A DNA stretch of 53,725 nt from an uncultured Verrucomicrobia subdivision 3 bacterium (GTDB lineage: Bacteria; Verrucomicrobiota; Verrucomicrobiia; Limisphaerales; UBA11358). Shown here piece by piece: positions 7,827-47,195 of the stretch. A program made the translations under genes and the position numbers. The notes beneath the pieces are model-generated. The model had not been told where the DNA came from. It did no database searches and was given only the letters and a program-made list of their open reading frames with translations. Numbering within the stretch: the first letter of the stretch is position 1; each line of letters starts with the position of its first letter. The stretch covers positions 1 through 53,725 of the forward strand of contig CAILDU010000143.1 of the NCBI GenBank assembly GCA_903833055.1, written 5' to 3'.

Positions 7827-7844
7827 TTTGACACGGTAATTTTA

Positions 7845-8282
7845 GACACGGATTTCACGGATTAGCACGGATTTTTACAAAATAACTCTTTTCCACTCCA
7901 GTGAATCACCACCGAAGTTGACCAGCAAACCAACGTGCAACTTCGATGCGGCCAGATAATTCAAGACCTGCTTGACGTGCGGGTCAGCCAGTCGTTCGAC
8001 GGCTTTTGCCTCGAATAGAATTTTTCCTTCGACCACAAAATCAGCAAAATAAAAATGCGGTAGGATGACATCCTTGTATTTCACTTCAAATTTCTGTTCG
8101 CGTGCAAACGGAACATTCGCGCGACTTAATTCCACCACAAGTGCATCTTTGTATAGGACTTCATCGTGTCCTTTGCCCAGTTCGCGATGAATCTCCATGC
8201 AAAGCCCGATCAAACGGTGCGTGTCTTCGCGATAGAGAATTTCAGACATAAATAATCCGTGAAAATCCGTGCAATCCGTGTC
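7845..8282. mobile_element. cassette A: 438-bp TIR-bounded, TA-flanked element carrying one GxxExxY gene
   Basis: Left arm 7845-7874 is GACACGGATTTCACGGATTAGCACGGATTT. The reverse complement of 8253-8282 is GACACGGATTGCACGGATTTTCACGGATTA, identical in 26 of 30 positions. Each arm has three CACGGAT units with mirrored 9/10-bp spacing. TA lies at 7843-7844 and 8283-8284. Confidence 0.7.
7875..8249 (-). CDS. GxxExxY family protein (PD-(D/E)XK-like fold)
   Basis: The 124-aa core MSEILYRE...HRELGKGHDEVLYKDAL...DFVVEGKILFEAK...LVNFG matches the TIGR04256 GxxExxY pattern. The ORF-track start at 8327 runs into the repeat arm, so I prefer the ATG at 8249. Confidence 0.8.
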   Translation of the reverse strand: MSEILYREDTHRLIGLCMEIHRELGKGHDEVLYKDALVVELSRANVPFAREQKFEVKYKDVILPHFYFADFVVEGKILFEAKAVERLADPHVKQVLNYLAASKLHVGLLVNFGGDSLEWKRVIL

Positions 8283-8944
8283 TAGTTTTTCACGGCTTTG
8301 CCGCCCCAGCTTGCGTGCAAACCGCATTCGCGCTTTTCATCCGCCTTGGCCGGATCAAAATAATCCCACTCGTTGGGCAGGTTGTGCTGTTTCAGATAAT
8401 TTTCCATGTCCGCGTCGCTCCAGTAAAAGAGCGGGCTGACTTTCAGTGAATTGAAATTCTTGTCCTCGCTCACGATGTCGAGTTCCGCGCGATTCGGATT
8501 TTGCACTTTCCGCAACGCGGTGAGCCAGACGGTTGGCGCAAGTTCCTTCATGCCGCGCTGGAACGGTTCGAGTTTCATCGCGGTGCTGAAGGCTTTGATG
8601 CGCGCTTCATTTTCCGGCGTCGGTTCCGGCATGCCGCCGAACGCGGCGTCGTAATGCGCGGCGGTCATCTTCGGGATGTAAGCCTTGATGTTAAGCTTGA
8701 GCAATTTTTTAACTTCTTCGGCGTGCTTGTAAGTCGCGGGACGATTGTAACCGTGGTCAACCCACAGCACCGGAATGTCCGGCTGAACTTGTGTGACCAA
8801 GTGAAGAATCACCGCTTCGTAAGGCCGATAATTCGTCGAGACAATCGCGCGGCCATTCGCCTGCGCGATGGCCCACTTTACGATTTCCAGCGGCGATTTA
8901 GAACGCAACTCGGCGTTGGTTTGAGCAATTTGTTCAGAAGTCAT
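8282..8944 (-). CDS. cysH: phosphoadenosine phosphosulfate (PAPS/APS) reductase family protein
   Basis: PP-loop-type fold and C-terminal ECGLH motif, located between cysI and cysD. Its TAG stop is formed at the junction with cassette A. Confidence 0.8.
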   Translation of the reverse strand: MTSEQIAQTNAELRSKSPLEIVKWAIAQANGRAIVSTNYRPYEAVILHLVTQVQPDIPVLWVDHGYNRPATYKHAEEVKKLLKLNIKAYIPKMTAAHYDAAFGGMPEPTPENEARIKAFSTAMKLEPFQRGMKELAPTVWLTALRKVQNPNRAELDIVSEDKNFNSLKVSPLFYWSDADMENYLKQHNLPNEWDYFDPAKADEKRECGLHASWGGKAVKN

Positions 8945-12223: not shown

Positions 12224-13447
12224 TCAAGCCAGCCCGCGCGCGGTTAATTGCGCCAGCGTCCAGTCGTATTCCGCCGCGAGTTGGTCCACGACGTTTTGCG
12301 TTTTCAATTCCGGCGGCAGCACTTCCCAAGTGTAGGTTTCCATTTCGAGGTGCGCGCAAATCTCCGGGCTGGCTTGCAGCAAATCCAAAATGCCGAGCAA
12401 ATGGTCGTTCGTGTTTTCAAACGGCGGCGCGGCGGGCGCGTGCAGCGGAACGTGGAAGTGAATCCGCCATTCGGGCAATTGCGAATTGCGAATTGCGAAT
12501 TGCGAATTTTCAGCAGCCAGCGCGTCGGGTAAATCGCGGAAGATTTTTCGTGCGCCGGTTTCGTCGCGTTCCACGACCTGATGCAGATAAACGTCGTCGG
12601 CAAATTTTTTCAATTCCTCGCGCGCTTCGGGCGTGGGCGAAACTTTGAGCGCGGAACTCAAATGGATTTTGCTGATCTTAATGCCGTGATTGACGAGGCA
12701 GGGCAGGGCGTTGTGCGGTTCCTCAAATTCCACGGCGAAATGGCAGGTGTCGTAATTGACGCCGAGATGCGCGTCGAGGCGCGGGTCGTGCGGATGCTCG
12801 GCGCGCAGGCGGTCAAAAAAATGAATCGTCTCGGCGCTGCTTTCGAGGAGGCAGAGCGGTTCGGGTTCGAGGCCGAGGTGCAAATTTTTGCCGGTCTGCT
12901 TGCTGACGTGCGCGATGTGCTCGACGGTGCGCCAGAGATTTTGGCGGATGGTTTTTAGCGCGTCGGCGGTCGGATGAAATTCCTTGAACGTGCCGGGCAA
13001 CGTGCTGACGCTCCCGGCAATTCCAGCGGGAACAAGTTGCGCGAGCAAATCGAAAAGCAGATTCGTGTAGGCGATACGTTCGGGCGAAGTCCAGTCGGGC
13101 GAATAAACTTTTTCCTTCACGCGCGCGCCGTGAAAATTGCCGTAGGGAAATCCGTTCATCGTGAAGACGTAGCAATTATTTTTTTCGAGCCAGCGCTGGA
13201 ATTGCAACCGCGCGTCGCCTTCGCTCAAATCCACGGCGGCGCGTTCGCTCAAGCGTAAACCGATGGCGAAAGGTTTTTGCGGGCAAACTTTCTCGCGCAC
13301 GGCGAGCGCGTAATTTTTCAGAGACCCAAACGTTTCCGGCCACGTCTCGCCGCGATGGACGTTGGTGCAGTAAGCGAGGTGCAAGCCGTGGTTGAGTTTC
13401 ATTTCTGGAAAAAAGATGCGCGGAAACCTTGATTTTGCAAGGTGCAA
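12224..13447 (-). CDS. xylose-isomerase-like TIM-barrel protein (EboE-like)
   Basis: The LAYCTNVHRGETW N-terminus and length resemble EboE-type sugar-phosphate isomerase/epimerase proteins. An alternative start is at 13402 (MKLNHG). Confidence 0.6.
   Translation of the reverse strand: MHLAKSRFPRIFFPEMKLNHGLHLAYCTNVHRGETWPETFGSLKNYALAVREKVCPQKPFAIGLRLSERAAVDLSEGDARLQFQRWLEKNNCYVFTMNGFPYGNFHGARVKEKVYSPDWTSPERIAYTNLLFDLLAQLVPAGIAGSVSTLPGTFKEFHPTADALKTIRQNLWRTVEHIAHVSKQTGKNLHLGLEPEPLCLLESSAETIHFFDRLRAEHPHDPRLDAHLGVNYDTCHFAVEFEEPHNALPCLVNHGIKISKIHLSSALKVSPTPEAREELKKFADDVYLHQVVERDETGARKIFRDLPDALAAENSQFAIRNSQLPEWRIHFHVPLHAPAAPPFENTNDHLLGILDLLQASPEICAHLEMETYTWEVLPPELKTQNVVDQLAAEYDWTLAQLTARGLA
12474..12508. 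repeat. heptamer tandem array, GCAATT + (GCGAATT)x4, inside the EboE-like CDS
   Basis: Read directly. It is translated as SQFAIRNSQ in the host ORF. Confidence 0.85.
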
Positions 13448-14268: not shown

Positions 14269-14436
14269 ATGAAGTTCCGCGCCGTCAACTGCCTGTTGTT
14301 TCTACTGCTCGCGGCGGTCGTTCTGGTAATCTCCGGTTGCGCTTCTGACGATCCCGAAAACGCTTCCGTTCGTCCGTGGAATTCGCCTGCCGGTTGGGAA
14401 AACGGCCTCGGCGGCATGGACACACAGCACCGTTAA
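14269..14436 (+). CDS. small lipoprotein (55 aa), below the ORF-track length cutoff
   Basis: MKFRAVNCLLFLLLAAVVLVISGC signal peptide plus lipobox. The ATG immediately follows the upstream TAA. The stop overlaps the convergent MTHFS stop. Confidence 0.5.
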   Translation: MKFRAVNCLLFLLLAAVVLVISGCASDDPENASVRPWNSPAGWENGLGGMDTQHR

Positions 14437-15014
14437 TCTTTCTTCCGGCGCACACAGCGCATCGGCGTCAGCATAAAATCCACCTTCGCATCGTGCGGCT
14501 CCGATGGGATTTTTTCCAGCAATTGAAAATCGTGGCAGACGCCGCATTTTATCCCGCTCGCATTTTCCAGCAACCGGTCGTAAAAACCCTGGCCGCGACC
14601 AAGCCGGTTGCCGCTAAAATCAAACGCCATTCCCGGCACGAGGATTAAATTAAACTGGTTCAACGGAATTTCCGCGCAACTCGCCGCCGGTTCGCGCACG
14701 CCAAATTTTCCGGCGACGATGTCCGTCGCCAGCGTTTGAATTGTTTTTGCGCCGTAAGTTTTTTTCTCCGCGTCAAAAAAGGGCAGGGCGCAGTTCACAC
14801 CCAGCGCCAGCGACATTTCCAGCACCGGCCAGACATCCAGTTCATCCGGCAGCGGCGCGAAAAATAAAATCGTGTGCGCGCTCGGAATCTGTGCCTGCAA
14901 CCGCTCGCACAGCCCGATGGATTCCACCGCCCGCACCGCGTCGGAAATTTTTTCCAGCCGCGCGCGGATGTGCGCGCGCAGGTCGGATTTGGAATTGGCG
15001 ATGGAAGAATCCAT
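14433..15014 (-). CDS. ygfA: 5-formyltetrahydrofolate cyclo-ligase
   Basis: LILVPGMAFDFSGNRLGRGQGFYDR motif. I prefer the start at MDSS (15014), because the track start at 15116 overlaps hicA. Confidence 0.85.
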   Translation of the reverse strand: MDSSIANSKSDLRAHIRARLEKISDAVRAVESIGLCERLQAQIPSAHTILFFAPLPDELDVWPVLEMSLALGVNCALPFFDAEKKTYGAKTIQTLATDIVAGKFGVREPAASCAEIPLNQFNLILVPGMAFDFSGNRLGRGQGFYDRLLENASGIKCGVCHDFQLLEKIPSEPHDAKVDFMLTPMRCVRRKKD

Positions 15015-15018
15015 GCCG

Positions 15019-15234
15019 TCACAAATTATCCACGAATTCTTCCGGTGAGATGCCCGCCTGACGCAACACGCCGCGCAACGTGCCTTGATCCACTTCACGG
15101 TGCATCGGCACAACACAGACGCTGCCGCCGCGCCGCAGCACGAGATGGCTGCCTTTTTGCCGCTGGCGGACGAAGCCCAGACGCTCCAGTGCTTTCGCTA
15201 CCTTTGCGCCGGAAACGCAGGGGAGTTTAGGCAT
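15019..15234 (-). CDS. hicA: HicA-family mRNA interferase toxin
   Basis: 71 aa; KVAKALERLGFVRQRQKGSHLVLRR is a typical HicA/YcfA pattern. Confidence 0.8.
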   Translation of the reverse strand: MPKLPCVSGAKVAKALERLGFVRQRQKGSHLVLRRGGSVCVVPMHREVDQGTLRGVLRQAGISPEEFVDNL

Positions 15235-15436
15235 GTTCCAACTCGAAGGTGGTCAGGATGGCGCCGCTGCGGTCGGGCAGGTCCTGCTCCTCCAGAAACA
15301 GCGACGTGGCTTCCTTGAGATTTTTCAACGCCTCCTCGACCGTCTTGCCCTGCGTGGTCGTGCCGGTTTCGGGATTGTAGGCCACCAGCCAGCGTTTGGT
15401 TTCACCGGGATAGATAATCGCCGTGAGCGTCTTCAT
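15227..15436 (-). CDS. hicB: HicB-family antitoxin (UPF0150-type)
   Basis: 69 aa with the GKTVEEALKNLKEA motif. Overlaps hicA by 8 nt. Confidence 0.75.
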   Translation of the reverse strand: MKTLTAIIYPGETKRWLVAYNPETGTTTQGKTVEEALKNLKEATSLFLEEQDLPDRSGAILTTFELEHA

Positions 15437-15611
15437 GCGGCCAAGCTAAACGATGCCGACACCGTTGGCAAATGGGGAAAAACATTCTTGACCGTTGATT
15501 CTCGCGGATTGACGCGGATAATTTTCCGGCGCACACTCGCCGCTGTCCGAAAATAAAATACAAACAACGATTATTATTTAATTAACAATTTTGCGTAGCT
15601 ACGGCTACGGG

Positions 15612-15726
15612 CTGCACCGAAAACCTGGAAATTTTCAAGCCCGCACACAGCAACCGACCGAGCGCGCCCAAATGGGCGCGGCTTGGCGTGCTTGCTGTGT
15701 AGGCGCTTCCAGGTGCCTCGGTGCAG
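15612..15726 (+). ncRNA. GC-rich rod-like hairpin (about 115 nt), candidate structured RNA or leader upstream of the methyltransferase
   Basis: Nested complementary segments: CTGCACCGA/TCGGTGCAG (15612-20 with 15718-26), CCTGGAA/TTCCAGG (15624-30 with 15707-13), ACACAGCAA/TTGCTGTGT (15645-53 with 15692-700), and CGCGCCC-AAAT-GGGCGCG (15663-80). An AT-rich stretch precedes it and a T-run follows at 15748-56. Strand is assumed from the downstream genes. Confidence 0.45.
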
Positions 15727-15791
15727 GGTGCGTTAAGTCCGCGCCTCTTCTTTTTTAGAATTCCCGTTTCCGCCCGCTCGCAGCGGAAACC

Positions 15792-16778
15792 ATGGCAACT
15801 AAAAGTTCAAATTCATTTTTGCAAAAGGCAAAGTCCGCAAAAAAGGATGAGTTTTACACGCAACTTTCTGACATTGAGAAGGAACTAAAAAATTACAAAG
15901 CGCATTTGAAAGGCAAAGTCGTCTTGTGCAATTGCGACGACCCGCGCGTCAGCAATTTTTTCCACTATTTCTCTTACAAATTTAAGCAGTTAGGGTTGAA
16001 GAAGCTCATCGCAACCTGCTACAAAAATCAGTGTGCTGACCTCTTCAGTCAAAACGATTCAGAAAAGGCGATCTACTTGGAATATAATGGTGACAAAAAT
16101 GGAAACAACATTCCCGACTCCGAAGAAATCGGCATTAAGCAATTAAAAGGCGATGGCGATTTTCGCAGTGCTGAATGTGTTGAGCTATTGAAGAGGGCAG
16201 ACCTCGTCGTGACCAATCCACCGTTCTCCCTATTCCGGGAATATGTTGCCCAACTCGTCGAACATGATAAGAAATTCATTATCATCGGCCACCAGAATGC
16301 GATTACCTACAAAGAGATCTTCAAGCTGATTAAGGAAAATAAACTATGGTTGGGATATGGCTTCAACCGTAATTGCGCGCACTTCATAAACCGGCATTAC
16401 GTTGATTATGCATCAGACGCCGACCACAGGGAAGGAATGATAAGAGTTTCAGGCGTTCAATGGTTCACAAATATGGACACCACGAAACGCCACGAAGAAT
16501 TAATTTTATACAAAAAATATCATCCTAACGAATATCCAAAATACGACAATTACGATGCAATCGAAGTTAGCAAGACGACGAATATTCCGATGGATTATGC
16601 CGGCCCTATGGGCGTTCCCATTACGTTCCTTAACAAATATAATCCCGACCAATTTGACATCTTGGGAAATCTTGGTTCGTATGCGCCTGATGGCTATTCC
16701 TTGATTGGGGCAATTTTCATCAACAAAAAGAAGATTTATAAACGCATCCTTATAAAAAATAAAAAACCTTTGGTATGA
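15792..16778 (+). CDS. adenine-specific DNA methyltransferase, EcoRI-methylase-like family
   Basis: DEFYTQ N-terminal motif, VTNPPF catalytic motif (NPPF), 328 aa, AT-rich codon usage. Confidence 0.75.
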   Translation: MATKSSNSFLQKAKSAKKDEFYTQLSDIEKELKNYKAHLKGKVVLCNCDDPRVSNFFHYFSYKFKQLGLKKLIATCYKNQCADLFSQNDSEKAIYLEYNGDKNGNNIPDSEEIGIKQLKGDGDFRSAECVELLKRADLVVTNPPFSLFREYVAQLVEHDKKFIIIGHQNAITYKEIFKLIKENKLWLGYGFNRNCAHFINRHYVDYASDADHREGMIRVSGVQWFTNMDTTKRHEELILYKKYHPNEYPKYDNYDAIEVSKTTNIPMDYAGPMGVPITFLNKYNPDQFDILGNLGSYAPDGYSLIGAIFINKKKIYKRILIKNKKPLV

Positions 16779-17881
16779 ATATTGAACTGAAAAGAATAAC
16801 CGTTGGCGAATTGGCGGATGGCTATGAAGACAACGCGGAAGGTGGCGTTGTTGCGTTCGGCGGCAAGCTGGACGTGCGGCCGCCGTATCAGCGGGAGTTC
16901 ATCTACAAGGACAAGCAGCGCGATGCCGTCATCAACACCGTCACCAAAGGTTTTCCGCTGAACGTGATGTATTGGGCGGTGCGTGCGGACGGCGGCTTTG
17001 AGGTGATTGACGGGCAGCAGCGCACTATTTCCGTTTGCCAGTATGTGACGGGCGTTTTTTCGTTTCAAAACTTGTATATCCACAATCTGCCAGACGACGT
17101 GCGGGAAAAAATTCTCGGCTACAAGCTCATGATTTATCAATGCACCGGCACGGACAGCGAGAGGCTTGATTGGTTCAGAACGATCAACATTGCAGGAGTA
17201 AAACTATCAGACCAGGAATTGCGGAACGCCGTCTATGCCGGCTCGTGGGTTTCCGACGCGAAACGATATTTCAGCAAAACAGGCTGTGCCGCATATCAAA
17301 TCGGACAAGATTATCTCGATGCTGAACTAAATCGTCAGGGATATTTGGAGACCGCTATTGATTGGATTTCGGAAGCATATGGGAACGCGGACATCATCGA
17401 GAAATACATGGGCAAGCATCAGCACGCTAAAGACGCCAAGAAGCTTTGGGAGTATTATCAAGCGGTGATTGATTGGGTGGGTGAAACATTTACCAAGAAG
17501 CGAAGCAAAATAATGAAGGGCGTTCCGTGGGGTGTTCTCTACAATAAATTTAAGGACGAAAAGTTTGACCCGAAGAAAATCGAGGCAGAGACGGTGAAGT
17601 TGATTGACGATGACGAAGTGACAAATCAAAAAGGAATTTACCGATACATTTTGACGCGCGACGAAAAATATCTCTCGCTCCGCACGTTCAACGATAAGGA
17701 GAAGCAAAAGGCTTACGAAAAACAAAAAGGCATCTGCCCGAAATGCCCGAAGTCAAAGCATTGGGAGCTTGAAGAAATGGAAGCCGACCACATTACGCCG
17801 TGGCACGCAGGCGGGAAAACCATGCTGGATAATTGCCAGATGCTTTGCAAAGACCACAACCGGAGAAAGTCAGGGAAGTAA
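16775..17881 (+). CDS. DUF262 (ParB/Srx-like NTPase) - HNH endonuclease fusion protein
   Basis: The N-terminal RPPYQREFIY...IDGQQR motif is typical of DUF262. The C-terminus CPKC...EADHITPWHAGGKTMLDNCQMLCKDHN is a canonical HNH. An ATGA overlap couples it to the methyltransferase. Confidence 0.8.
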   Translation: MNIELKRITVGELADGYEDNAEGGVVAFGGKLDVRPPYQREFIYKDKQRDAVINTVTKGFPLNVMYWAVRADGGFEVIDGQQRTISVCQYVTGVFSFQNLYIHNLPDDVREKILGYKLMIYQCTGTDSERLDWFRTINIAGVKLSDQELRNAVYAGSWVSDAKRYFSKTGCAAYQIGQDYLDAELNRQGYLETAIDWISEAYGNADIIEKYMGKHQHAKDAKKLWEYYQAVIDWVGETFTKKRSKIMKGVPWGVLYNKFKDEKFDPKKIEAETVKLIDDDEVTNQKGIYRYILTRDEKYLSLRTFNDKEKQKAYEKQKGICPKCPKSKHWELEEMEADHITPWHAGGKTMLDNCQMLCKDHNRRKSGK

Positions 17882-17889
17882 TCCGTGTT

Positions 17890-19278
17890 TCATCCGTGTG
17901 CATCTGTGGTATTCCGTTTTTCTGAAAATTGTTTCCGCCAGTTTTCGAGGCGCTCCTTGATTTTCTTTTCCACGCCTTGTTCCGTCGGCTCGTAATAAGT
18001 TTTGTCCACGCCCAGATAATCTTGCGCGACGAAATGGTCCTTGCCGTCGTGCGCGTATTCGTAGCCTTTGCCGTGGCCGAGCCGTTCCGCACCCTTGTAA
18101 CTTTTATCGCGCAAATGTTCCGGCACGGCCAGCGTGCGACCGGAACGCACGTCTTCCAGTGCGGCGTCAATCGCCATGTAAGCGGAATTACTTTTGTTTG
18201 CCGTGGCGATGTAAATCGTCGCTTCGGCCAATGGAATCCGCGCTTCCGGCCAGCCGACAAATTCCGACGCGGCGAGGCACGCGTTCGCCAAAACCAAAGC
18301 CATCGGGTCGGCGAGGCCGACATCTTCCGCCGCGCAAATCACGATGCGCCGCGCGATGAAGCGCGGGTCTTCGCCGGCGTGAATCATCTTGGCGAGCCAG
18401 TAAAGCGCGGCGTCGGGATCGCTGCCGCGCATGGATTTGATGAACGCGGAAATGGTGTCGTAATGCGCGTCGCCATCACCGTCATAAACCACGGCCTTTT
18501 TCTGGATGCTCTGCGCGGCGACTTCCAGCGTGATTCGGACAACGCCATCAGTATCTGGTGAAGTTGTCAGCGCGGCGATTTCGAGCGAGTTGAGCGCCTT
18601 GCGCGCGTCGCCGTCGGCGATTTTGGCAAGATGGCGCAAGGCGTTTTCATCGGCGGAAATTTTCAGATAGCCGAGACCGCGTTCCTCGTCTTTCAACGCG
18701 CGTTGCAGCAATGAAAATAAATCTTCTTCCGTCAGCGGGCGCAGTTCGAAGATTTGCGAGCGCGAGACGAGCGGCGAATTGACGAAGAAAAACGGATTGT
18801 GCGTCGTCGCGCCGATGAGCTTGATGACGCCGCTCTCGACATCCGGCAGCAAAACATCCTGCTGTGATTTGTTGAAGCGGTGGATTTCGTCAATGAAGAG
18901 AATTGTGGATGCGCCAGTGTTTTCAAGGCGATTGGCCGCTGCTGACAAAACGCGCCGCATATCGGCGACGTTGGATTCCACGCCGCTCAATCTTTCAAAT
19001 TTTGATTTGGTCTGCCGCGCGATGATTTGCGCGAGCGAGGTTTTTCCCGTGCCGGGCGGCCCGTAAAAAATCAGCGACTGGATTCTATCTGCTTCAATGG
19101 CGCGGCGCAAAAGTTGGCCGCGGCCGAGGATGTGGGTTTGCCCAGCATACTCATTTAAGTTGCGCGGGCGCATCCGCGCGGCGAGCGGCTGGCTGCGAAA
19201 GTTATTTTCGGCGGCGGACACAATTTCTTCTTCCGGCAATGCTTTTGCCGGTTGGGAAAATAGTTCGTCGCGCGCCAT
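17890..19278 (-). CDS. rarA: replication-associated recombination protein A (AAA+)
   Basis: GPPGTGKTS Walker A, IDEIHRF box and MgsA C-terminal domain. The last codons and the stop lie inside the right repeat arm of cassette C. Confidence 0.9.
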   Translation of the reverse strand: MARDELFSQPAKALPEEEIVSAAENNFRSQPLAARMRPRNLNEYAGQTHILGRGQLLRRAIEADRIQSLIFYGPPGTGKTSLAQIIARQTKSKFERLSGVESNVADMRRVLSAAANRLENTGASTILFIDEIHRFNKSQQDVLLPDVESGVIKLIGATTHNPFFFVNSPLVSRSQIFELRPLTEEDLFSLLQRALKDEERGLGYLKISADENALRHLAKIADGDARKALNSLEIAALTTSPDTDGVVRITLEVAAQSIQKKAVVYDGDGDAHYDTISAFIKSMRGSDPDAALYWLAKMIHAGEDPRFIARRIVICAAEDVGLADPMALVLANACLAASEFVGWPEARIPLAEATIYIATANKSNSAYMAIDAALEDVRSGRTLAVPEHLRDKSYKGAERLGHGKGYEYAHDGKDHFVAQDYLGVDKTYYEPTEQGVEKKIKERLENWRKQFSEKRNTTDAHG

Positions 19279-19346: not shown

Positions 19347-19382
19347 TGCCGGGTTGCTAAAAGCAGTCCGGTAATCTTGAAA

Positions 19383-19570
19383 GAAACCCCGCCATTGCCG
19401 TGTCTAACTGTATCCTTCGGACATATGTTTCCATATGTGGGACTCGCCCGATGGCTTACAACTTTCGGACGTAATGCCGACGTGTTGGCCACCGTCTGCG
19501 GCTCATCCCGAGTTCGTTTTATTTACGGTCCAAGGACTGTTGCGAATCACGCACAGGGCAGGGAAATTAT
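19383..19570 (-). ncRNA. ssrS: candidate 6S RNA
   Basis: On the minus strand, the 5' end AAUUUCCCUGCCCUGUGCGUGAUUCGCAACAGUCC and the 3' end ACAGUUAGACACGGCAAUGGCGGGGUUUC resemble the E. coli 6S termini. The closing stem CCCUGCC-CUGUG pairs with CACGG-caau-GGCGGGG using G-U wobbles. Length is about 190 nt, in a 450-nt gene-free gap, followed by a terminator. Confidence 0.5.
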
Positions 19571-19731: not shown

Positions 19732-22700
19732 TTATTTTCCCGCTTTGCCGTCCAGATTTTTGCGGATAATTTCGGCGATGGCTTCGGGCTTGAACGGTTT
19801 GCGGATGAAGTTGACGCCTTCGGTGAGTTTGGCGTCGCGGCCTTCGAGATTGCCGGTGTAGCCGCTGGTATAAATGACTTTAAGCGTCGGTTTGTCAGCG
19901 AGCAGTTGGCGGCCAAGTTCAATGCCGTTCAGATTTTCCGGCATAATGATGTCGGTGAGAACGAGTTTGATTTGGTCGCGCTGTTCCTTCCAAACTTTCA
20001 AGGCGGCGGGGCCGGACTCAGCTTCCAGCACAGTGTAGCCGCAACGCTGGAGCAAATCGCTGACGAAGGTGCGGAGCGGAAATTCGTCTTCGACGAGCAA
20101 AATAGTTTCGGTGCCCCACGGCAATACCGGCCGGTTTTGGAAATCAGTTTTTACCTCGGCAGCCGGAGCGGCGATAGGGAAATAAACGTTGAAGGTCGTG
20201 CCTTTGCCGAGTTCGCTTTGCACGGTGATGTCGGCGTGATGTTGCTGCACGATGCCGTAAACCGTGGCGAGACCGAGGCCGGTTCCCTTGCCAACTTCTT
20301 TCGTCGTAAAAAACGGCTCAAAAATGCGTGCGAGAATTTCCGGAGCGATACCGCTGCCGGTGTCGGCCACGGACAGACAGACGCGCGATTCCGCCGCCGG
20401 ATTTTTCGCACCGGCGGCGGGCTGAAATTTTTCCACCTTGCTGCGAATTGTCAGTTGTCCGCCGCCGGGCATGGCGTCGCGGGCATTGACGGCGAGGTTG
20501 AGAATAATTTGTTCAAGCATCCCGACATCGGCGTTGATGAGCGGTAGCGCGGGGGAATATTCCGAACGCAGCGCGATGTCTTCGCCCAGAATGCGCTGGA
20601 GCATTTTGGTCATCTGCGAAACCGTTTCGTTGAGATCGAGATGAACCGGTTGCATCTGCTGCTTGCGCGCGAACATGAGCAACTGGCGCGTGAGGCCAGC
20701 GGCACGTTCGCCCGCGCGCGCGATTTGATTGGAGCAATCGCGAATTTCTGACGGCTGCAAATCGAGACCCTGCAACAATGAAGCGTTGCCCTGAATGACG
20801 GTGAGAATATTATTAAAATCGTGCGCGATGCCGCCGGACAACTGGCCGACCGCTTCCATTTTTTGCGACTGGCGGAGTTGCGCTTCGAGATTGCCGCGTT
20901 CTTTTTCCGCGCGAATTTTTTCAGTGATGTCCGTGACGATGGACAGGCAACCGCAAATTTCGCCCGCCGCGTTGCGCCACGGCGTATTGCGCCATTCACA
21001 GGTGATGCGGCGTCCGTCCTTGGTGAGGTTTTCGTTGACGGAATGGCTGGCCACGTTGCCCGTCTTGATAACTTCATTCCATACGTGATCCACTTGCGGT
21101 TGGACTTCCGGTGGCACAATTAATTTGTAAGCATGTCGGCCGGTGGCCTCAACGGTGCTCCAGCCAAAAATTTCCTCGGCAGCGTGATTCCATTCCGCCA
21201 CACAGAAATTGCAATCAAACGCGATGAACGCCAGCGGCATCCGGTTCATGTAAAACTGTGTGCGTTCCGCCGCGGCGCGCAATTCTTCCTCCATCCGCCG
21301 CCGCTGCGTGATGTCCTGTTTGATGGCGACAAAATGCGTAATTTGTTTTTGGTCGTCGCGCAACGGCGTGATGGTCATCTCCTCCAGATAAAAACTGCCA
21401 TTCTTGCGGCGGTTGGTGATTTCGCCATGCCAAGCCTCGCCCGCAAGAATCGTCTCCCACATCGCCTGATAAAATTCGTGGCCATGCTTGCCGGAGCGGA
21501 TGAGCGCGCCCGGATTTTTCCCGACGCATTCGGCCAGCGTGTAGCCGGAACTGGCGGTGAACGCCGGGTTGACCCATTCAATATTGCCGCGCGGATCGGT
21601 GATGAGAATGGCATTGGCGGCGGTTTCCAGCGCGACGCTTTGCAGGCGCATGGATTTTTCGGCGAACTGCTGTTTGGTGATGTCGCGGCCAATGCCGACG
21701 AGGCCGCCAATTTTTCCCTGCGGATCGCGAAAGGCCACCATGTTGGTCACCACCGTGCGCGCCTGACCGTCGGGGAAAGTGATGGAATCTTCAAACGTGC
21801 AAAACGACTCGGACGTGAGGACTTGTTGTTCGCTCGCACGGAAATGCGCCGCGAGTTCCACCGGCAGAAACTCCGCGTCTGTGTGGTGGAGCATTTCCGC
21901 CGGCTGTTTGCGATAACATTTCGCCAGCGATTCGTTGACCACGAGGTAACGGCTTTCCGTGTCCTTGACAAAAATAAAATCCGGTGCGAGGTCGATGAGT
22001 GTTCGGAGCAACTGCCGTTCGTGTTTCATCGCCTCCTGCGCGCGCTGGTGTTCCGTCACGTCGCGAAAACTCCAGACGCGCCCGATGATTTTTTCACCGA
22101 GCCGTTGCGGGCGCGACACGCGATCGTAAATGCGTCCGTCCTTGAAATGCAACGTGTCGTAAGATTCCTCCGCTGGCTGTTGGTAAAGCTCCTTGATGCG
22201 CTGGAAAAAAGTTTCCGGTTGCCTGAGTTGATCCAGCACCACTTTCAAGATGACTAGATCATCGCCCTGTGTCATCAGTTCCGCCGGGATGCGCCACATT
22301 TCGAGGAACCGGTTGTTGTAAGTCGTAATTTTTCCCGTGAGATCCACTACGAGCAAACCACTCACGCTGGACTCGATGGTCGCGCGCAATAGCGAAACCG
22401 ATTGCGCCAGTTGATCCTCGTATTCCTTGCGTTCGCTGATGTTGCGCGCCTGCGCGGCGAGCACCAGTTGCCCCTGAATTTCGTAGCAGGTCAGGCTAAT
22501 TTCCACCGGAAAACTCGTGCCATCCTTGCGCCGGTGCCGCCCACGCACAATCTGTGAACGCCCCGGATGCAAATTCGACCAGACCTGCCGCACCTCCTCC
22601 AGTCGGGCGTCCTGTTCGATATCCAGCACCGACATCCGCAATAATTCCTTGCGCGAGTAACCCAGACTTTCACACGCGCTCTGGTTCACATCCAGCAAAC

Positions 22701-23529
22701 GGCCTTCCGTGTCGTGCACAAAAATTGCATCCGACGCCTGCTGCACCAGCGTGCGAAAACGTTCCTCGCTGCCGCGCAAGGTTTTTTCCACGCGATCCTT
22801 GACGATGGCCGTGGCTGCCGTATGCGTCACCAATTCAATCAGCCGCACGTCGTCATTTTTCGGCAACCCCGTCTCGCGATGATAAATCGCAAATGTGCCC
22901 AGCACTTTTTTTTGCTCATCGAGAATCGGCGTTGACCAGCACGCGCGCAATTTGTGTGGCAGCGCCAGATGTTTGTAATCCTGCCACAACGGATCGTGCG
23001 CGATGTCGCCGACGAACACCGGCGAACCGCGAAACGCTGCCGTGCCACAACTGCCCACCTTGGGTCCAATCGTCGCCCCGTCAATCGCCCGCACATAATC
23101 CACCGGCAACGACGGTGCGGCTCCGTTCCGCAACCGAGCGCCATCCGCATCCAGCAGTAAAATCGAAACCAGCATATCCGGCGATTGCGTCTCGATGCCG
23201 TGCAGCAACACTTCCAGCGTTTCCTTTAGCGGTTTTCCGCCCGCAATCATCTGCAACGTCTCATTTTGCAGCCGTGTCAACGCCTCCGCCTTTTTCAGTT
23301 CTGCAATTTTTTGTGACTCACGGTGCAACAACTGTTGCATGATGAGAAAGAGCATTACGCCGGTGAACGCGACAAAGCCCCAGCCCTTGTAAGTCTCCAA
23401 CTGCAACAACCGTTCCTTGTCCGAGACCAAATCATCCAGCAGCTTGTCGGAAAATAAAATCCACAGCCCCGCGAACAGCCCGTATAACAGGCTCGCCCGC
23501 AGTGCCACCGCGCTGGATTTTTGGGTCAT
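19732..23529 (-). CDS. hybrid sensor histidine kinase (TM, GAF, multiple PAS, HisKA, HATPase, receiver)
   Basis: GIAHDFNN H-box, DTGSGI and GTGLGL ATPase boxes, and a C-terminal receiver with DIIMP. Confidence 0.85.
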
Positions 23530-23619: not shown

Positions 23620-26331
23620 TTACTTTTTATCGAGGCATTCGCGAACCGTTTGGGCGAGCTTGTGAATCAGGAATGGCTTGGTAAGAAAATTGACGCCTTC
23701 CTGCAAAACTAAATCTTTCCCGGCCACTTCCGCGCTGTAACCGCTGGCGTAAATGACTTTTAATTTCGGATTGTCCAGCGTGAGCCGCCGCGCGAGTTCC
23801 TTTCCGTTAATGCCGTTCGGCAGCACCATGTCGGTGAGCAGTAAATGAATTTCATCACGGTGTTTTTCCCAAGTCGTCAAAGCGTCCGCGCCATTGGACG
23901 CTTCGAGCACGCGGTAGCCGAGGCCGGTGAGAACCGTATGCACAAGCACGCACAAGGCCGGTTCATCTTCGACGACGAGGATGGTTTCATTTCCGCCACT
24001 TACATTCGTGAGCGTCGCCGGCGCGGCAACTTGTCCGGTGATTTCCGCCAGTCGCGGCAGATAAATTCGGAAGGTTGTGCCGATTTCAACTTCGCTGTAA
24101 ACGCCAATCCAGCCTTGATGTTGCTGCACGATGCCGAAGACCGTGGCCAGTCCCAAACCCGTGCCTTTGCCGACATCTTTGGTGGTGAAGAACGGTTCAA
24201 AAATCCTCGGCAAAATATGTGGGGCAATGCCGCAGCCGGTGTCGCTCACGCTCAAGCAGGTGAACGCACCCGGTCGCGCCTGTGGTGATTGCCGCGCGGT
24301 CATCTCGTCAAATTCCACCGCCGAAGTTTCGATGATGAGCCGTCCGCCTTCCGGCATCGCATCGCGGGAATTCACCGCGAGATTCACCAAAATTTGTTCC
24401 ATCATGCCGAGGTCGGCGCGGATGAATAATGGCTCCGGAAAAAAGTTCAATTGCAGATGCACGTCTTCGCCCAACGTGCGCTGAAGCATTTTGGTAATGT
24501 TGGCAACGATTTCATTCAGGTCGAGGTCTTGCGGCTGGAGCGTTTGCTTGCGGCTGAACAAAAGTAACTGACGCGTCAGATTCGCCGCGCGTTGCGTCGC
24601 CTTGCCAATTTCCTTGGTGACTTCCTGCTGCGCCGGCAGCAGTTCGTTCGTGGTTTCCAGCATGCCGATTTGAAGCTGGATGATGGCGAGAATGTTGTTG
24701 AAATCGTGCGCCACACCGCCCGCGAGTTGGCCGATGGCTTCCATTTTTTGCGACTGACGCAATTGTTCTTCCAGCCGTTTGTATCCCGTAATGTCGCGCG
24801 CAATCTTGGACGCGCCGATGATTTTGCCGTTACTATCTTTGAGCGGAGAGATGGTTACGGAAACATCAATCCGCTTGCCGTCTTTACAGACGCGCACCGT
24901 TTTAAAGTGTTCAACGGTTTCGCCGCGCCGGATTTTTTCCAGAATTTCGTGCTCCTCATGTTCCCGTTCCGGCGGAAAAAGTATGAGGAGCGGGCGACCA
25001 ATGGCTTCCACCGCCGTGTAGCCAAAGACGCGTTCCGCGCCCCGGTTCCAACTGGTGATAATGCCGTCCAGATTTTTGCCGATAATGGCGTCATCCGAGA
25101 ATTCCACAATCGCCGCCAGCCGCGCGTGCGACTGCTCGACCTTCAAGCGTTCCGTGACATCAAACATGATGGCCTGCGAACCCGCAATTTTTCCATTGGC
25201 GTCGTAAGTCGGAGATTTGATGACTTCAAAAAATAGTGTGCGTCCGTCCGGATGGACATATTCCTCGTGCACTTCAATCCGTTGGCCGGTCGTCATGATT
25301 TGCTCATGATGATTGGCGCCGCTCGCCGCCAGCGCCGTGTCAGTCAAGCCAAGTTCCAGCGCCGTTTTACCCAAAAACTGTTCCGCCTTCATGCCTTTCA
25401 ATTTGCAGAAAGCGGAATTGACGAAAACAAAACGTCCCGCCGCATCCTTGCGAAAAACTCCCGCCGGCATTTCGTTGACCAGTGAAAAATAAAGCGCCTG
25501 CGATTCGCGAATCGCATCTTCCGCCCGTTTTTTTGCCGTGTTATCCCGGAACACCAGCACCACCCCGATAATTTTTCCTTCCAGATTACGAATCGGCGCC
25601 CCGCTGTCATCAATGATAAACTCCCGGCCGTCGCGCGCGATCAACACTGTGTGGTTCGCCAATCCCACGACGCCATTCGTGCGAAAAACTTTTTCCACCG
25701 GATCTTCCACCGTTAGCCGCGTTTCCTCGTTGACGATGCGAAAAACCGTTGGCAACGATTTTTCGGCGGCGGCCGCATTCGTCCAGCCTGTCAGCCGTTC
25801 CGCTTCACCGTTCAGAAAAGTGACGCGACCCTGTGCATCCGTCGTGATGACCGCGTCGCCGATGCTCGCCAGCGTCACCGCATACAACGACTGATTGGTA
25901 TTCGCCCGCTGACGCGCGCGGTGCAAGGCCTCATTCAAAAAGCTGGCTACTACGCCGCCCGCAATAAAAATCAGCCATTGGAGAAAATCCATTGGCTTGG
26001 CGAATAAAAAACTGTGCGTTGGCGGCATCAAATAATATTCGGAGCTGATGGCGGAGATAAATGTCGCCACCAAGCCCGGCCCCAGTCCGCCAATGTAGGC
26101 GCTAAAAAGAATCGGCAGAAAAAAGATGACGAGCAGCGGACGGTCGTTGACCCACGGGGAAAAACTCAAGCGCGCCAGCAGCGTCAGCACCGTCACCACG
26201 ACCGCAAATCCATAGGCGAACACCCGCGATTGACTTGCGATAGCCAACCTTCCTGACCCGTCTGCGGGTGATTGTTCGTTATTAACCATTTGGTTACTTG
26301 AGGCGCGTAACTTGTTTGGATGAACATGCAA
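23620..26331 (-). CDS. hybrid sensor histidine kinase (DUF4118-like TM domain, PAS x4, HisKA, HATPase, receiver)
   Basis: GVAHDFNN H-box, DTGCGI/GTGLGL boxes and a DMVLP receiver. A paralog of the upstream kinase. An alternative start is at 26289. Confidence 0.85.
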   Translation of the reverse strand: MHVHPNKLRASSNQMVNNEQSPADGSGRLAIASQSRVFAYGFAVVVTVLTLLARLSFSPWVNDRPLLVIFFLPILFSAYIGGLGPGLVATFISAISSEYYLMPPTHSFLFAKPMDFLQWLIFIAGGVVASFLNEALHRARQRANTNQSLYAVTLASIGDAVITTDAQGRVTFLNGEAERLTGWTNAAAAEKSLPTVFRIVNEETRLTVEDPVEKVFRTNGVVGLANHTVLIARDGREFIIDDSGAPIRNLEGKIIGVVLVFRDNTAKKRAEDAIRESQALYFSLVNEMPAGVFRKDAAGRFVFVNSAFCKLKGMKAEQFLGKTALELGLTDTALAASGANHHEQIMTTGQRIEVHEEYVHPDGRTLFFEVIKSPTYDANGKIAGSQAIMFDVTERLKVEQSHARLAAIVEFSDDAIIGKNLDGIITSWNRGAERVFGYTAVEAIGRPLLILFPPEREHEEHEILEKIRRGETVEHFKTVRVCKDGKRIDVSVTISPLKDSNGKIIGASKIARDITGYKRLEEQLRQSQKMEAIGQLAGGVAHDFNNILAIIQLQIGMLETTNELLPAQQEVTKEIGKATQRAANLTRQLLLFSRKQTLQPQDLDLNEIVANITKMLQRTLGEDVHLQLNFFPEPLFIRADLGMMEQILVNLAVNSRDAMPEGGRLIIETSAVEFDEMTARQSPQARPGAFTCLSVSDTGCGIAPHILPRIFEPFFTTKDVGKGTGLGLATVFGIVQQHQGWIGVYSEVEIGTTFRIYLPRLAEITGQVAAPATLTNVSGGNETILVVEDEPALCVLVHTVLTGLGYRVLEASNGADALTTWEKHRDEIHLLLTDMVLPNGINGKELARRLTLDNPKLKVIYASGYSAEVAGKDLVLQEGVNFLTKPFLIHKLAQTVRECLDKK

Positions 26332-32030: not shown

Positions 32031-34352
32031 ATGAGTTCAGGACATGGACATCGGCACGAAGAACCGGCGGCAATTTGTCTGGCGCGCTGCGTCGCTGATA
32101 CATTTTCCGAGGAGCCGATGCTGGAAGCGGTGACGATTGATACTGTGCAAAAGAAAATTTCCGTCGCTACGCTCGGTCGCGCCGACGTGGAAAAACTCAC
32201 ACAAAAAATTTCTGCTAAAATTTCGTCCGCACAAAATTCCGCTGCCAGCGAAACCTGTTCTTTATTTTCCGGCAAAAATAATTGCGCCGTGTGCGACTCG
32301 CCATTGTCTGCGAACGAACAAAAACTTATCACCATCCACCGCGACGCCACGGCTACGACCATCGCGCGCGTCACCTGTCCGACCGCACCGAAGTTCTGGC
32401 GCTGGCGCGATATTCCGTTTCCCAAAATTGCGCCGCGCGAAATGGAAATCCACGACGACGACCACCACATTGACGAATGGAAAGGCCAGCTCGTCCTCGC
32501 CATCGCGTGTGGCGTGGCCGGATTGACGGCTTACTTTTTCGGCAAAGCCGATCAACCGGGAATCGCCATTATTAGCTACGCCATTGCTTATCTCGCGGGC
32601 GCATTTTTCGCCGCCGAAGAAGTTTTGGAGCGTCTACACAAACGCATATTGGACGTGCATTTTCTCATGCTTGCCGTTGCGTTTGGCGCGGCCACCATCG
32701 GTGCGTGGGCGGAAGGCGCGACGCTGCTATTTCTGTTTTCCTTTTCCGGCGCACTGGAGCATTACGCCTTTGGCCGCACGCAGAAGGAAATCCGCTCGCT
32801 CTTCCGCGATGCGCCGAAAACCGCCACGCTCATTGACGCGAATGGAAACGAAACAGAAATTCCCGTTGAAAACATTTCCAAAGGCGTGCGTTTGCTCATC
32901 AAGCCCGGCGCGCAATTTCCCGTGGACGCGGAAATCGCCAAGGGAAACACCGCTGCGGATGAATCCAATCTCACCGGTGAAGCTGCGCCCGTCGAAAAAA
33001 TCATTGGCGACACCGCGCTCGCTGGCACTTTGAATCTTTGGGGCGCGGTTGAAGTCATCGTCCTGCGACCGGCGGCGGAAAGCTCGCTGCAAAAAATCAT
33101 CACGCTCATCCGCGAGGCGCAGCATCAGAAAGCGCCCGCGCAAATGTTTGCCGACAAGTTCAGCACCTTTTACACTTACGGCGCGCTCGGCCTGTCGCTC
33201 GCGATGTTTTTTGTGTGGCGGTTTGTTTTGAATTATCCGGCGTTCACTTCCACCGCCGAAGTTCACAGCGCATTTTATCGCACGATGACGCTGCTCGTCG
33301 TGTCATCGCCGTGCGCGCTCGTGCTGTCCATCCCGTCCGCCGTGCTGGCGGCAATCGCGTGGGCGGCGCGGCATGGAATTTTATTTCGCGGCGGCGCAGC
33401 GGTGGAAAAACTGGCCGAAATCAACGTCGTCGCGCTCGACAAAACCGGCACGCTCACGACTGGCGAACTGCGCGTGGAACAGGTGGAAAGTTTTCCGCCC
33501 GGACGCGAAAATGAAATCGCGCAGCTTGCGTATTCGCTGGAAAAATTGTCCACGCATCCGCTCGCCCGCGCCATCACGCGCCACGGCAAACAGCAGAATC
33601 TCGCGACGCACGAATTCTCGCAGTTTGAATCCGTCACCGGCCAAGGCTTGAAAGCGAAGCGCGATGGCAAAGAAGTTTTTTTGGGCAAACGCGAATGGGT
33701 GGAGACGCAAATGGCGCGCGGTGAATTTGCCGCGCCGCAATCCGGCGTGGGCACGTCCGAAGTCTGGATTGCCAGCGACGGTTTGATTGGCCGCGTTGTG
33801 TTGCGCGACGACATCCGTCCGCAGTCGGCGGAGGTGATGGCGCAATTGCGCGCACGCGGGCTGCATATTGTTGTGCTGACCGGCGATCGCGAAGCTGCCG
33901 CTGAACATTTGCGAACGGAATTAAAACTCGACGACGTGCGCGCCGAGTTGAAGCCGGAACAAAAAGTCGCGGCAATTCAGGAATTTTCCGCTGCCGGAAA
34001 AAAGGTGGCGATGATTGGCGACGGCGTGAATGACGCGCCGAGTTTGGCCGTCGCGCATATCGGCGTGGCAATGGGCGCGCGCGGGGCGGACGCCGCGTTG
34101 GAGCAGGCCGACGTGGTGCTGATGAACGACAAGCTGGAAAATTTTCTCGCTGCGTTCCGTTTGAGCCATCGCGCGCGGAGCATTATCCGGCAGAATCTTT
34201 TTATCTCGCTCGGCACGGTCGTCGTGCTGGTGACGTTCGCGTTGTTCGGCAAAATCCCGCTGACCCTCGGCGTGGTCGGCCACGAAGGCAGCACGGTCAT
34301 CGTCGTGATGAACAGCCTGCGGCTGCTATTCGGGGGTGGGAAAAAACTTTAG
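32031..34352 (+). CDS. heavy-metal translocating P1B-type ATPase (SPC motif)
   Basis: DKTGTLT phosphorylation site, SPC in the transmembrane metal site, GDGVNDAP hinge and a His-rich N-terminus (GHGHRHEE). Confidence 0.9.
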   Translation: MSSGHGHRHEEPAAICLARCVADTFSEEPMLEAVTIDTVQKKISVATLGRADVEKLTQKISAKISSAQNSAASETCSLFSGKNNCAVCDSPLSANEQKLITIHRDATATTIARVTCPTAPKFWRWRDIPFPKIAPREMEIHDDDHHIDEWKGQLVLAIACGVAGLTAYFFGKADQPGIAIISYAIAYLAGAFFAAEEVLERLHKRILDVHFLMLAVAFGAATIGAWAEGATLLFLFSFSGALEHYAFGRTQKEIRSLFRDAPKTATLIDANGNETEIPVENISKGVRLLIKPGAQFPVDAEIAKGNTAADESNLTGEAAPVEKIIGDTALAGTLNLWGAVEVIVLRPAAESSLQKIITLIREAQHQKAPAQMFADKFSTFYTYGALGLSLAMFFVWRFVLNYPAFTSTAEVHSAFYRTMTLLVVSSPCALVLSIPSAVLAAIAWAARHGILFRGGAAVEKLAEINVVALDKTGTLTTGELRVEQVESFPPGRENEIAQLAYSLEKLSTHPLARAITRHGKQQNLATHEFSQFESVTGQGLKAKRDGKEVFLGKREWVETQMARGEFAAPQSGVGTSEVWIASDGLIGRVVLRDDIRPQSAEVMAQLRARGLHIVVLTGDREAAAEHLRTELKLDDVRAELKPEQKVAAIQEFSAAGKKVAMIGDGVNDAPSLAVAHIGVAMGARGADAALEQADVVLMNDKLENFLAAFRLSHRARSIIRQNLFISLGTVVVLVTFALFGKIPLTLGVVGHEGSTVIVVMNSLRLLFGGGKKL

Positions 34353-46899: not shown

Positions 46900-47034
46900 G
46901 TCCCGCCAAATTGCGCCATGAACCTGCGAAAGTAAAGTGGCTTGCGCGCAAGTTTCGGTTGTCCTGTTCAACCGCGAAATACACGAACCACGCGAACATG
47001 AAGCAATGTTCCAAGGGAACATTTGAAAATAGCC

Positions 47035-47173
47035 CGGCATTTTAATGCCGGGTTGAACCCGCAAAGATTTTAAGTCCCGCAGGGACGGCTGACGTTTCCG
47101 GTCGTTCCTGCGGGACTTTATCTTTTCACCGCGCACCCGGCGTTGAAACGCCGGGCTATTTTCATTTTGTCTC
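47035..47173. repeat. nested-hairpin REP/MITE-like element (139 nt)
   Basis: The outer inverted repeat is GAAAATAGCCCGGC (47035-48) with GCCGGGCTATTTTC (47160-73). Inside are three hairpins: CCCGGCAT-ttta-ATGCCGGG, AAGTCCCGCAGG...CCTGCGGGACTT (47082-93 with 47117-28), and CCCGGCG-ttgaaa-CGCCGGG. Confidence 0.7.
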
Positions 47174-47195
47174 TTCGAGACGTGGCGGTGCTGGT

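Follow-up and report, generated by a model that had tools for sequence, protein, structure and literature searches.

In a 53,725-nt stretch of contig CAILDU010000143.1 (assembly GCA_903833055.1; this whole stretch is the window below) from an uncultured Verrucomicrobia subdivision 3 bacterium, a GC-rich hairpin of 115 nt (15612-15726) sits within the 355 bp that separate two divergently oriented gene groups, towards an operon in which a DNA methyltransferase (MTase) gene precedes a DUF262-HNH nuclease gene. What is the role of this hairpin? A preliminary description, made from the letters alone, had offered three possibilities: (i) an attenuator or leader, (ii) a small regulatory or antitoxin-like RNA, and (iii) a DNA-level recombination hairpin. 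The best explanation for the hairpin is that it forms the central stem of a structured RNA leader of ~210-250 nt, the 5' untranslated region (UTR) of a type II restriction-modification (R-M) operon. It is one copy of a large RNA family of Verrucomicrobiota (Limisphaerales/Pedosphaera-type lineages) that seems not to have been described before. We put at about 55% the probability that the element combines a portable promoter with a cis-acting leader attenuating transcription of the downstream genes.

Covariation and architecture of the RNA

In the RNA fold of 15600-15760, C15612 pairs with G15726 at a minimum free energy (MFE) of -83.7 kcal/mol, compared to a mean of -60.0 +/- 3.7 kcal/mol for dinucleotide shuffles (z = -6.34; 0 of 200 match the native energy), and the 115-nt hairpin is thereby borne out. 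The four nested complementary segments originally noticed correspond to the stems P2a (9 bp) and P2b (7-8 bp), a variable stem of ~12 bp, and a GC-rich apex of ~12 bp. The minus strand folds nearly equally well (z = -5.6), since any palindrome folds on both strands. The compositional contrast is also real (GC content of 0.61-0.63 in the element, 0.40 in the MTase open reading frame (ORF), and 0.56 in the upstream flank), and the selection for structure suspected from it is supported by massive covariation, with compensatory changes across homologous copies in genomes and metagenomes.

The covariation was counted in three alignments. A MAFFT alignment of 39 seed copies, with the structure taken from the majority of single-sequence folds, served to build a covariance model (CM), R1, which was used to align 50 genome and 95 metagenome copies:

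MAFFT, 39 copies: 95.4% of cells paired; 18 pairs with 130 double-changed cells (slid controls, 34-44% and 5-21 cells)
CM-aligned, 50 distinct genome copies: 96.6% paired; 23 pairs with 252 cells (slid controls, 34-44% and 12-49 cells)
CM-aligned, 95 distinct metagenome copies: 95.6% paired; 30 of 56 pairs with 635 cells (slid controls, 34-44% and 66-118 cells)

The metagenome copies lay outside model building and were selected without reference to the first hairpin (P1) or the 5' half; for this set, none of 500 shuffles reaches the observed values on any of five measures. Each search pattern forces invariance within its own segment. Up to four pair types occur at single positions with pairing maintained. 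In the metagenome set, pair 84/118 is G-U in 50 copies and A-U in 43, and one pair of the third hairpin (P3) is U-G in 51 copies and C-G in 40. Read on the minus strand, these conserved G-U pairs would become A-C mismatches; the RNA is therefore assigned to the plus strand. The CM scores are 85-193 bits on the sense strand and at most 40 bits on the antisense strand.

The hairpin (P2) is the core stem of a ~165-nt module that comprises P1 (15594-15609), P2 (15612-15726), and a terminator-like hairpin with a U-run (15727-15756). With its flanks, the module reads as follows:

15509..15537, plus strand: sigma-70-like promoter, with -35 TTGACG (15509-15514), a 17-nt spacer, and -10 CACACT (15532-15537)
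15544..15592, plus strand: A/U-rich 5' tail (...GAAAAUAAAAUACAAACAACGAUUAUUAUUUAAUUAACAAUUUU) of ~50 nt, ending in AACAAUUUU, of a sequence type conserved across copies
15594..15609, plus strand: P1, a 6-bp hairpin CGUAGC-UACG-GCUACG with a UNCG-type tetraloop
15612..15726, plus strand: P2, a 115-nt rod with covarying basal stems, a variable middle stem, and a conserved apex
15727..15756, plus strand: P3, a GGUGCG-UUAAGUC-CGCGCC hairpin (6-7 bp, 15727-15745) followed by UCUUCUUUUUU at 15746-15756
15761..15767, plus strand: UUCCCGU motif after the U-run (YCCGU family-wide)
15766..15790, plus strand: GC-rich hairpin next to the gene and specific to it, GUUUCCGC-CCGCUCGCA-GCGGAAAC, with its end 1 nt short of the ATG (fold of the identical sequence of another copy, L218)

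Transcription is predicted to start at ~15544. The promoter pattern TTGNNN-N16-18-YAnnHT, ending 50-65 nt before P1, is found in 69 of 128 copies compared to 7 of 128 in the coding control. A generic promoter scan of 14900-16300 gave a sole match, TTGATT/GATAAT at 15495-15522, which is the same place with another hexamer pairing. The AT-rich stretch (15545-15592) that had been described as promoter-like is indeed present, but the conserved -35/-10 pair sits just upstream. Given this promoter position, the stretch would be transcribed, and it is probably the 5' tail of the RNA rather than a promoter. Metatranscriptome contigs cover the tail, and the absence of any ATG in 15544-15592 leaves no leader peptide ORF there. 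The promoter module (15485-15541, GGATTGACGC(G/T)GATAATTTTCCGGCGCACACTCGCCG) is itself a repeat, in peat metagenomes far commoner (depth ~300 in X9) than the hairpin (50-100). Other A-rich sequences follow it in these metagenomes, and thus it probably serves many other genes or leaders.

In the metagenome set, P1 shows compensatory changes at three of its six pairs, with UACG, UUCG, or UUUG loops. P2 consists of the 9-bp basal stem, the 7-8 bp stem, the variable stem (9-12 bp in the family), and the GC-rich apex. Its conserved parts are (i) an internal loop with an invariant AA // GCC within GAAAAC // GUGCCU, (ii) an asymmetric loop AAUUUUC(C)AAG between the 8-bp stem and the variable stem, and (iii) the apex CCGACCGAGCGCGCCC-AAAU-GGGCGCGGCUUGGCG. 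The U-run TCTTCTTTTTT reported downstream of the hairpin is present at 15746-15756, directly 3' of the separate hairpin at 15727-15745. A terminator scan is positive at 15726-15756, and P3 is predicted to be intrinsic-terminator-like; its stem and U-rich tail are conserved in ~150 copies, the tail in nearly all of them. The MTase start codon is the ATG at 15792, as previously placed, and no Shine-Dalgarno sequence precedes it. Across the family, the 45 nt past the terminator fold with z < -1.5 in 34% of 166 copies compared to 4% in the coding control.

The element is covered by contigs of 180-430 nt in metatranscriptomes of peat, wetland, and bioreactor origin. Several of them run 37-98 nt beyond the U-run, and one reaches an MTase-like ORF. 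These contigs support expression of the element and do not define transcript ends.

Copies of the element and the genes behind them

The operon and its neighbors are as follows:

14433-15116, minus strand: 5-formyltetrahydrofolate (5-formyl-THF) cyclo-ligase
15019-15234, minus strand: HicA toxin (PF07927, E = 1e-16)
15227-15436, minus strand: HicB-like DUF7387 protein, overlapping hicA and upstream of it; a toxin-antitoxin (TA) pair divergent from the leader
15792-16778, plus strand: EcoRI-family N6-adenine DNA methyltransferase (Pfam PF13651, E = 8e-132; PADLOC MTase_II, E = 6e-121)
16775-17881, plus strand: DUF262 (GmrSD_N) and HNH nuclease (PF03235 and PF01844; PADLOC REase_II, E = 4e-130)
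17890-19278, minus strand: RarA/MgsA

The start of the nuclease gene overlaps the MTase stop codon (ATGA), and PADLOC classifies both plus-strand genes as full-length type II MTase and restriction endonuclease. On this evidence, the DUF262-HNH protein is the restriction partner of the MTase, and the operon a type II R-M system. Since the neighboring hicB is divergent, the MTase gene must be transcribed from within the intergenic region.

At least ~175 copies of the element were recovered, nearly all from Verrucomicrobiota metagenome-assembled genomes (MAGs) and from peat, lake, and soil metagenomes. An exact 18-mer from P1 occurs at 89 places in GTDB genomes. Of these, 54 are true copies, nearly all in Verrucomicrobiota MAGs (labelled Limisphaerales, Pedosphaera, or 'subdivision 3', several with two or more copies), and ~35 are chance matches, many in one conserved coding stretch, probably trpB. 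A pattern of the apex and 3' arm was found on at least 120 metagenome contigs and had no match in IMG/VR; the 18-mer gave one chance match in viral contigs, in a phage tail-like gene. Three true copies (L010, L018, and L058) come from MAGs that carry the labels Limnocylindrales, Bifidobacteriaceae, and 'beta proteobacterium'; rather than occurrences outside the phylum, they are most likely Verrucomicrobial contigs that were binned wrongly. Two leader copies, L028 (4974-5133) and L207, are truncated or rearranged, being intact to the apex or 3' arm and then running into unrelated sequence; thus, copies decay. A candidate second copy in the window (47034-47166; 23 bits, E = 0.002), the only other CM match there, was rejected as an unrelated long hairpin (47010-47178; 44-nt arms, 80% complementary, 81 nt apart) that lacks the conserved motifs of the family.

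Many short contigs of high depth, assembled from lake, peat, and sediment samples and 85-100% identical, cover the region ~15562-15767 and continue into unrelated sequence at both ends; the variants among them looked compensatory. Before an 88%-identical MTase homologue in another MAG, in a different genomic context, the element is kept with identical loops and apex, and all three variable stems are compensatorily changed.

A same-strand ORF of at least 100 aa adjoins the element in 113 of the 131 loci with enough sequence, and its first in-frame ATG lies at a median of 34 nt past the element (interquartile range (IQR), 27-43). From P2 to the ATG, a promoter-like match is present in just 13 of 168 copies (92% without), and therefore these ORFs depend on read-through. 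For the 50 genome copies, the first ORF encodes N6_N4_Mtase (17 cases), EcoRI_methylase (4), N6_Mtase (2), a PAPS-reductase domain (2, DndC-like by N-terminal sequence), HSDR_N_2, a type ISP coupler, or a PLDc_2/SNF2/ResIII protein, and a divergent subfamily of genome copies has Laminin_G_3, beta-propeller, peptidase M4, or DUF2130 proteins in this position. The first ORFs of 82 metagenome copies include MTases (18), MORN_2 proteins (10), secreted-repeat proteins of the Ig, LRR, Ank, Kelch, and NHL types, and others. The only large clusters of neighbor proteins were discarded as spurious ORFs across the element itself. One subfamily, which includes the window copy, mostly has DNA methyltransferase genes of R-M or defence operons as first ORFs; in it, 32 of 35 ORFs have a lower GC content than the upstream flank (mean difference, 6 points). 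Other subfamilies stand before genes for secreted-repeat and MORN proteins. The promoter and leader behave as a cassette that precedes strain-variable genes, many of them horizontally acquired.

The link to the MTase/DUF262-HNH pair was thus only partly as first described. The element is kept before close homologues of the pair in Verrucomicrobial genomes (L002, L003, and L218) but is not pair-specific. The pair is a conserved two-gene unit across many phyla (at least 8000 homologues in the protein search; the 120 among the matches listed are all at least 71% identical). Homologous pairs in Methylovorus, a Flavobacteriaceae MAG, Anaerolineae, and an unclassified bacterium have no CM match upstream, and the 120 nt upstream of these four pairs fold no better than shuffles. 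The element is found at 177 bits in L218, whose MTase is 82% identical. The window, L002, and L218 represent three unrelated genomic contexts in which similarity extends from about the -10 region to precisely the HNH stop codon; thus, promoter, leader, MTase, and nuclease genes move as a unit within the lineage. By these comparisons, the leader is not part of the ancestral R-M cassette.

Same-lake contigs of related strains join ~14982-14997 to ~17892-17936 and lack both hicAB and the leader-R-M module. The segment hicA-hicB-leader-MTase-HNH (~14990-17930) is therefore a strain-variable island (depth, 7-21x compared to ~15-280x in the flanks), and the empty-site junctions fall outside the hairpin. 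Other lineage-specific intergenic repeats surround the modules (L002, 8100-8200; L218, 4620-4700; upstream of many copies), represented by GGTCGCTGCGC...GGGCTAATTTCCGTAGC and by the hairpin TCCCTCTCC...GGAGAGGGCCGGGGTGAGG.

Proposed mode of action and competing explanations

The role best supported is that of a cis-acting 5' leader, to which the structure and its strand, the promoter and terminator, the spacing, and the lack of any further promoter jointly point. In this scheme, RNA polymerase would start at the conserved promoter (15509-15537) and transcribe the A/U-rich tail, P1, and P2 rightwards. At the P3 hairpin and U-run most transcripts would end, yielding a short leader RNA, and the read-through fraction would carry the downstream genes. 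With the start codon directly behind a GC-rich hairpin and without a Shine-Dalgarno sequence, basal expression would be low; the conserved terminator and the structured start suggest that low expression is the default state. The invariant internal loops and apex of P2 suggest a bound factor: a protein, RNA polymerase itself, or a ligand would probably dock there in trans and set the level of read-through. Partial or regulated termination at P3 and factor binding by P2 are what we infer from this arrangement. In addition, the short RNA that ends at P3 may itself be functional. The leader option of the preliminary description thus stands, as a same-strand 5' leader of the MTase operon; its suggestion that the timing of MTase versus nuclease expression is controlled finds no sign in our data, and no evidence points to an antitoxin-like role.

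Several points weigh against this reading: (i) the strict pattern detects the promoter motif in only about half of the copies; (ii) the pair counts of both CM-fitted alignments lean towards the model, the 39-copy count having used MAFFT; (iii) the RNA contigs are assembled and undirected, may include DNA, and in some cases extend upstream of the predicted start; (iv) no conserved protein family that could be a partner adjoins the element; (v) the downstream genes have no obvious metabolic theme, and therefore no ligand suggests itself; and (vi) no mutually exclusive antiterminator helix was found, P2 and P3 coexisting in every MFE fold. Because P2 and P3 can form together, the sequence does not show regulated over constitutive termination. 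In by-eye pairing tests over the alignments, AGGCGC/GGCGCG against the 3' strand of P3 and CCAAGCC against GGCUUGG showed no compensating changes, and a long-range helix of the tail loop or of J1/2 with CCCGU was dropped on the same ground.

The strongest competitor, though we consider it unlikely, is an independent multi-copy small-RNA gene whose ~210-nt product acts in trans, e.g. by titrating a protein in the manner of 6S- or CsrB-type RNAs; its place before accessory genes would then be a by-product of insertion sites or occasional read-through. The complete promoter-structure-terminator layout fits such a gene, as do the invariant loops and apex, which suggest protein binding, the MAGs with two or more copies, and the discrete 180-430 nt metatranscriptome contigs centered on the element, some deeper than their neighbors. 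It is hard to reconcile with the tight spacing to the same-strand ORF, with conservation of the stretch from terminator to ATG (UUCCCGU and the hairpin), with the 92% of copies whose ORF has no separate promoter, and with RNA contigs that run on into the ORF. A trans-acting small RNA and a cis leader are not mutually exclusive.

A more speculative extension of the cis-acting leader, which we think improbable, is a lineage-wide RNA 'expression adaptor' for foreign or strain-variable genes. P2 would modify RNA polymerase or recruit an elongation factor (in the manner of put, EAR, or LoaP) on a signal, possibly phage infection, and so switch on R-M, defence, and variable surface-protein genes silenced by P3. 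If true, it would be the first case of R-M and defence genes under a shared RNA-based regulator.

We hold a riboswitch-type sensor, in which P2 would bind a small molecule or ion and P3 would be the expression platform, to be quite improbable. The 5' UTR position, the strong covariation, the conserved unpaired nucleotides, and the terminator directly after them are all riboswitch-like, and rod-like hairpin aptamers with internal loops exist (NMT1/xanthine, nhaA-I, and THF-II). Nevertheless, R-M methyltransferases, MORN proteins, and secreted Ig/LRR/Kelch proteins share no metabolite logic, no switching helix is evident, and no Rfam riboswitch matches.

It is highly improbable that the element is a selfish DNA repeat, similar to miniature inverted-repeat transposable elements or repetitive extragenic palindromes, with a hairpin that is mere palindromic shape without RNA function. 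The element is multi-copy, is located among other intergenic repeats, has truncated copies (L028 and L207), and appears on short high-depth metagenome contigs that break at its edges. However, its orientation and distance to the downstream ORF are constant, pairing is kept with up to four pair types per position, and G-U pairs are conserved. Moreover, apart from the RNA helices the element lacks terminal inverted repeats, the similarity edges of the window, L002, and L218 show no target-site duplication, and the element occurs as one copy per 8-54 kb locus, with none in IMG/VR. The possibility raised at the outset, that the hairpin belongs to a repeat family unrelated to the cassette, is thus half right: the element does form a repeat family, yet one with RNA structure and with coupling to genes.

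Finally, a single-stranded DNA recombination site (attC-like) for capture or exchange of gene cassettes would suit the element's place at the upstream edge of a module in different genomic contexts, the island's absence from related strains in the same lakes, the integron-like cargo (R-M and TA genes), and the P3 loop GTTAAGT, which happens to fit GTTRRRY, but was rejected on architecture as barely credible, since the empty-site junctions (~14982-14997 and ~17892-17936) lie outside the element and hicAB is removed too, the apex is conserved and the base variable (the opposite of attC), no arrays or integrase occur in the window or the loci, and the element has conserved plus-strand G-U pairs and stands upstream of its own gene with a promoter.

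Relation to known systems and meaning of the family

No family of Rfam 15 (4227 models, including 6S, SRP, riboswitches, EAR, and Pedo-repair) matches the element, the check proposed in the preliminary description thus giving no identification. At the gathering threshold the whole window yields only 6S RNA (19382-19567), the region 15400-15900 at E <= 10 gives only noise matches of 10-16 bits to eukaryotic snoRNA and miRNA models, and twenty diverse copies at E <= 0.5 have nothing on the element. We found no literature report of a Verrucomicrobial or R-M-associated structured RNA of this kind, nor of any RNA leader common to different R-M types.

The element belongs with the terminator-containing leader RNAs and constitutes a new family among them; its multi-copy occurrence, its own promoter, and its service to R-M and other strain-variable genes are unusual. 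With terminator-containing 5' leaders (attenuators, whether riboswitch- or protein-dependent) it shares the same-strand 5' UTR position, a covarying structure with conserved loops, and a terminator-like hairpin with U-run 35 nt before a promoterless ORF. It differs from them in that no antiterminator pairing was found, it precedes accessory and defence genes rather than a metabolic regulon, and it travels with its own promoter as a unit.

The put RNA of phage HK022, EAR of Bacillus, and the RfaH ops/JUMPStart and LoaP leaders are likewise structured leaders that open acquired or accessory operons, just before terminators. The element resembles these processive-antitermination RNAs and leaders of NusG-paralogue systems in this respect, and action of their kind would explain how one element serves many unrelated low-GC genes. 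However, the element has no sequence or structure match to them; EAR and related families are in Rfam and none matched. Known R-M control (C proteins, MTase autorepression, and EcoRI-type antisense RNAs) acts at the same site, upstream of an overlapping operon with the MTase gene first. Those controllers are system-specific proteins or antisense transcripts, whereas the element is a sense leader common to many R-M types and to non-R-M genes. The Correia (Neisseria), BOX (pneumococcal), and ERIC (enterobacterial) repeats are similarly palindromic intergenic repeats of ~100-150 nt that occur in many copies within a restricted lineage; like the element, they can bring promoters along and form folds in mRNA leaders. 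These repeats occur in either orientation, at variable distance, and with terminal inverted repeats and target duplications, in contrast to the strict orientation and spacing and the strong compensatory evolution of the element.

Two specific identities were rejected. Pedo-repair (RF01715) is a three-stem junction with five instances in Pedobacter sp. BAL39, a member of Bacteroidetes (PMC2864571). It is also a candidate cis-regulatory RNA before DNA-processing genes, followed by a possible terminator; its three-stem architecture and the lack of an Rfam match on the element exclude it. The 6S RNA model (RF00013) matches 19382-19567 (minus strand; 65.9 bits, full length), just upstream of rarA, and not the element. 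Without the accessory island the gene order is 6S - rarA - 5-formyl-THF cyclo-ligase, which recalls the ssrS-ygfA linkage of E. coli.

The window has further repeats and paralogues. Inverted repeats of CACGGATT / CACAGAT-type short units occur at 7843-8284 and 34350-35596; one pair flanks a 150-aa ORF (7875-8327), read from its sequence as probably a GxxExxY-type protein, and the other a 1.2-kb segment of low GC content (0.45). These repeat-flanked segments look like another kind of small inserted cassette. Tandem AATTGCG heptamers at 12477-12522 and 41265-41310 are 97% identical to each other. Two adjacent minus-strand ORFs of 1265 and 903 aa (19732-23529 and 23620-26331) are apparent paralogues (71-78% DNA identity in their C-terminal parts), whose translations read as multi-domain sensor histidine kinases with C-terminal receiver domains.

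If the cis-acting leader holds, the Verrucomicrobia of peat, lake, and soil, which are abundant and poorly studied, would drive or throttle many acquired genes by one RNA leader, with R-M systems above all among the genes so controlled. This would add to the catalogue a large, strongly covarying RNA family of at least ~175 copies, a new layer of control of R-M and defence genes, and a sequence tag for locating accessory and defence islands. The element is also a clean target for biochemical discovery of a binding protein or ligand.

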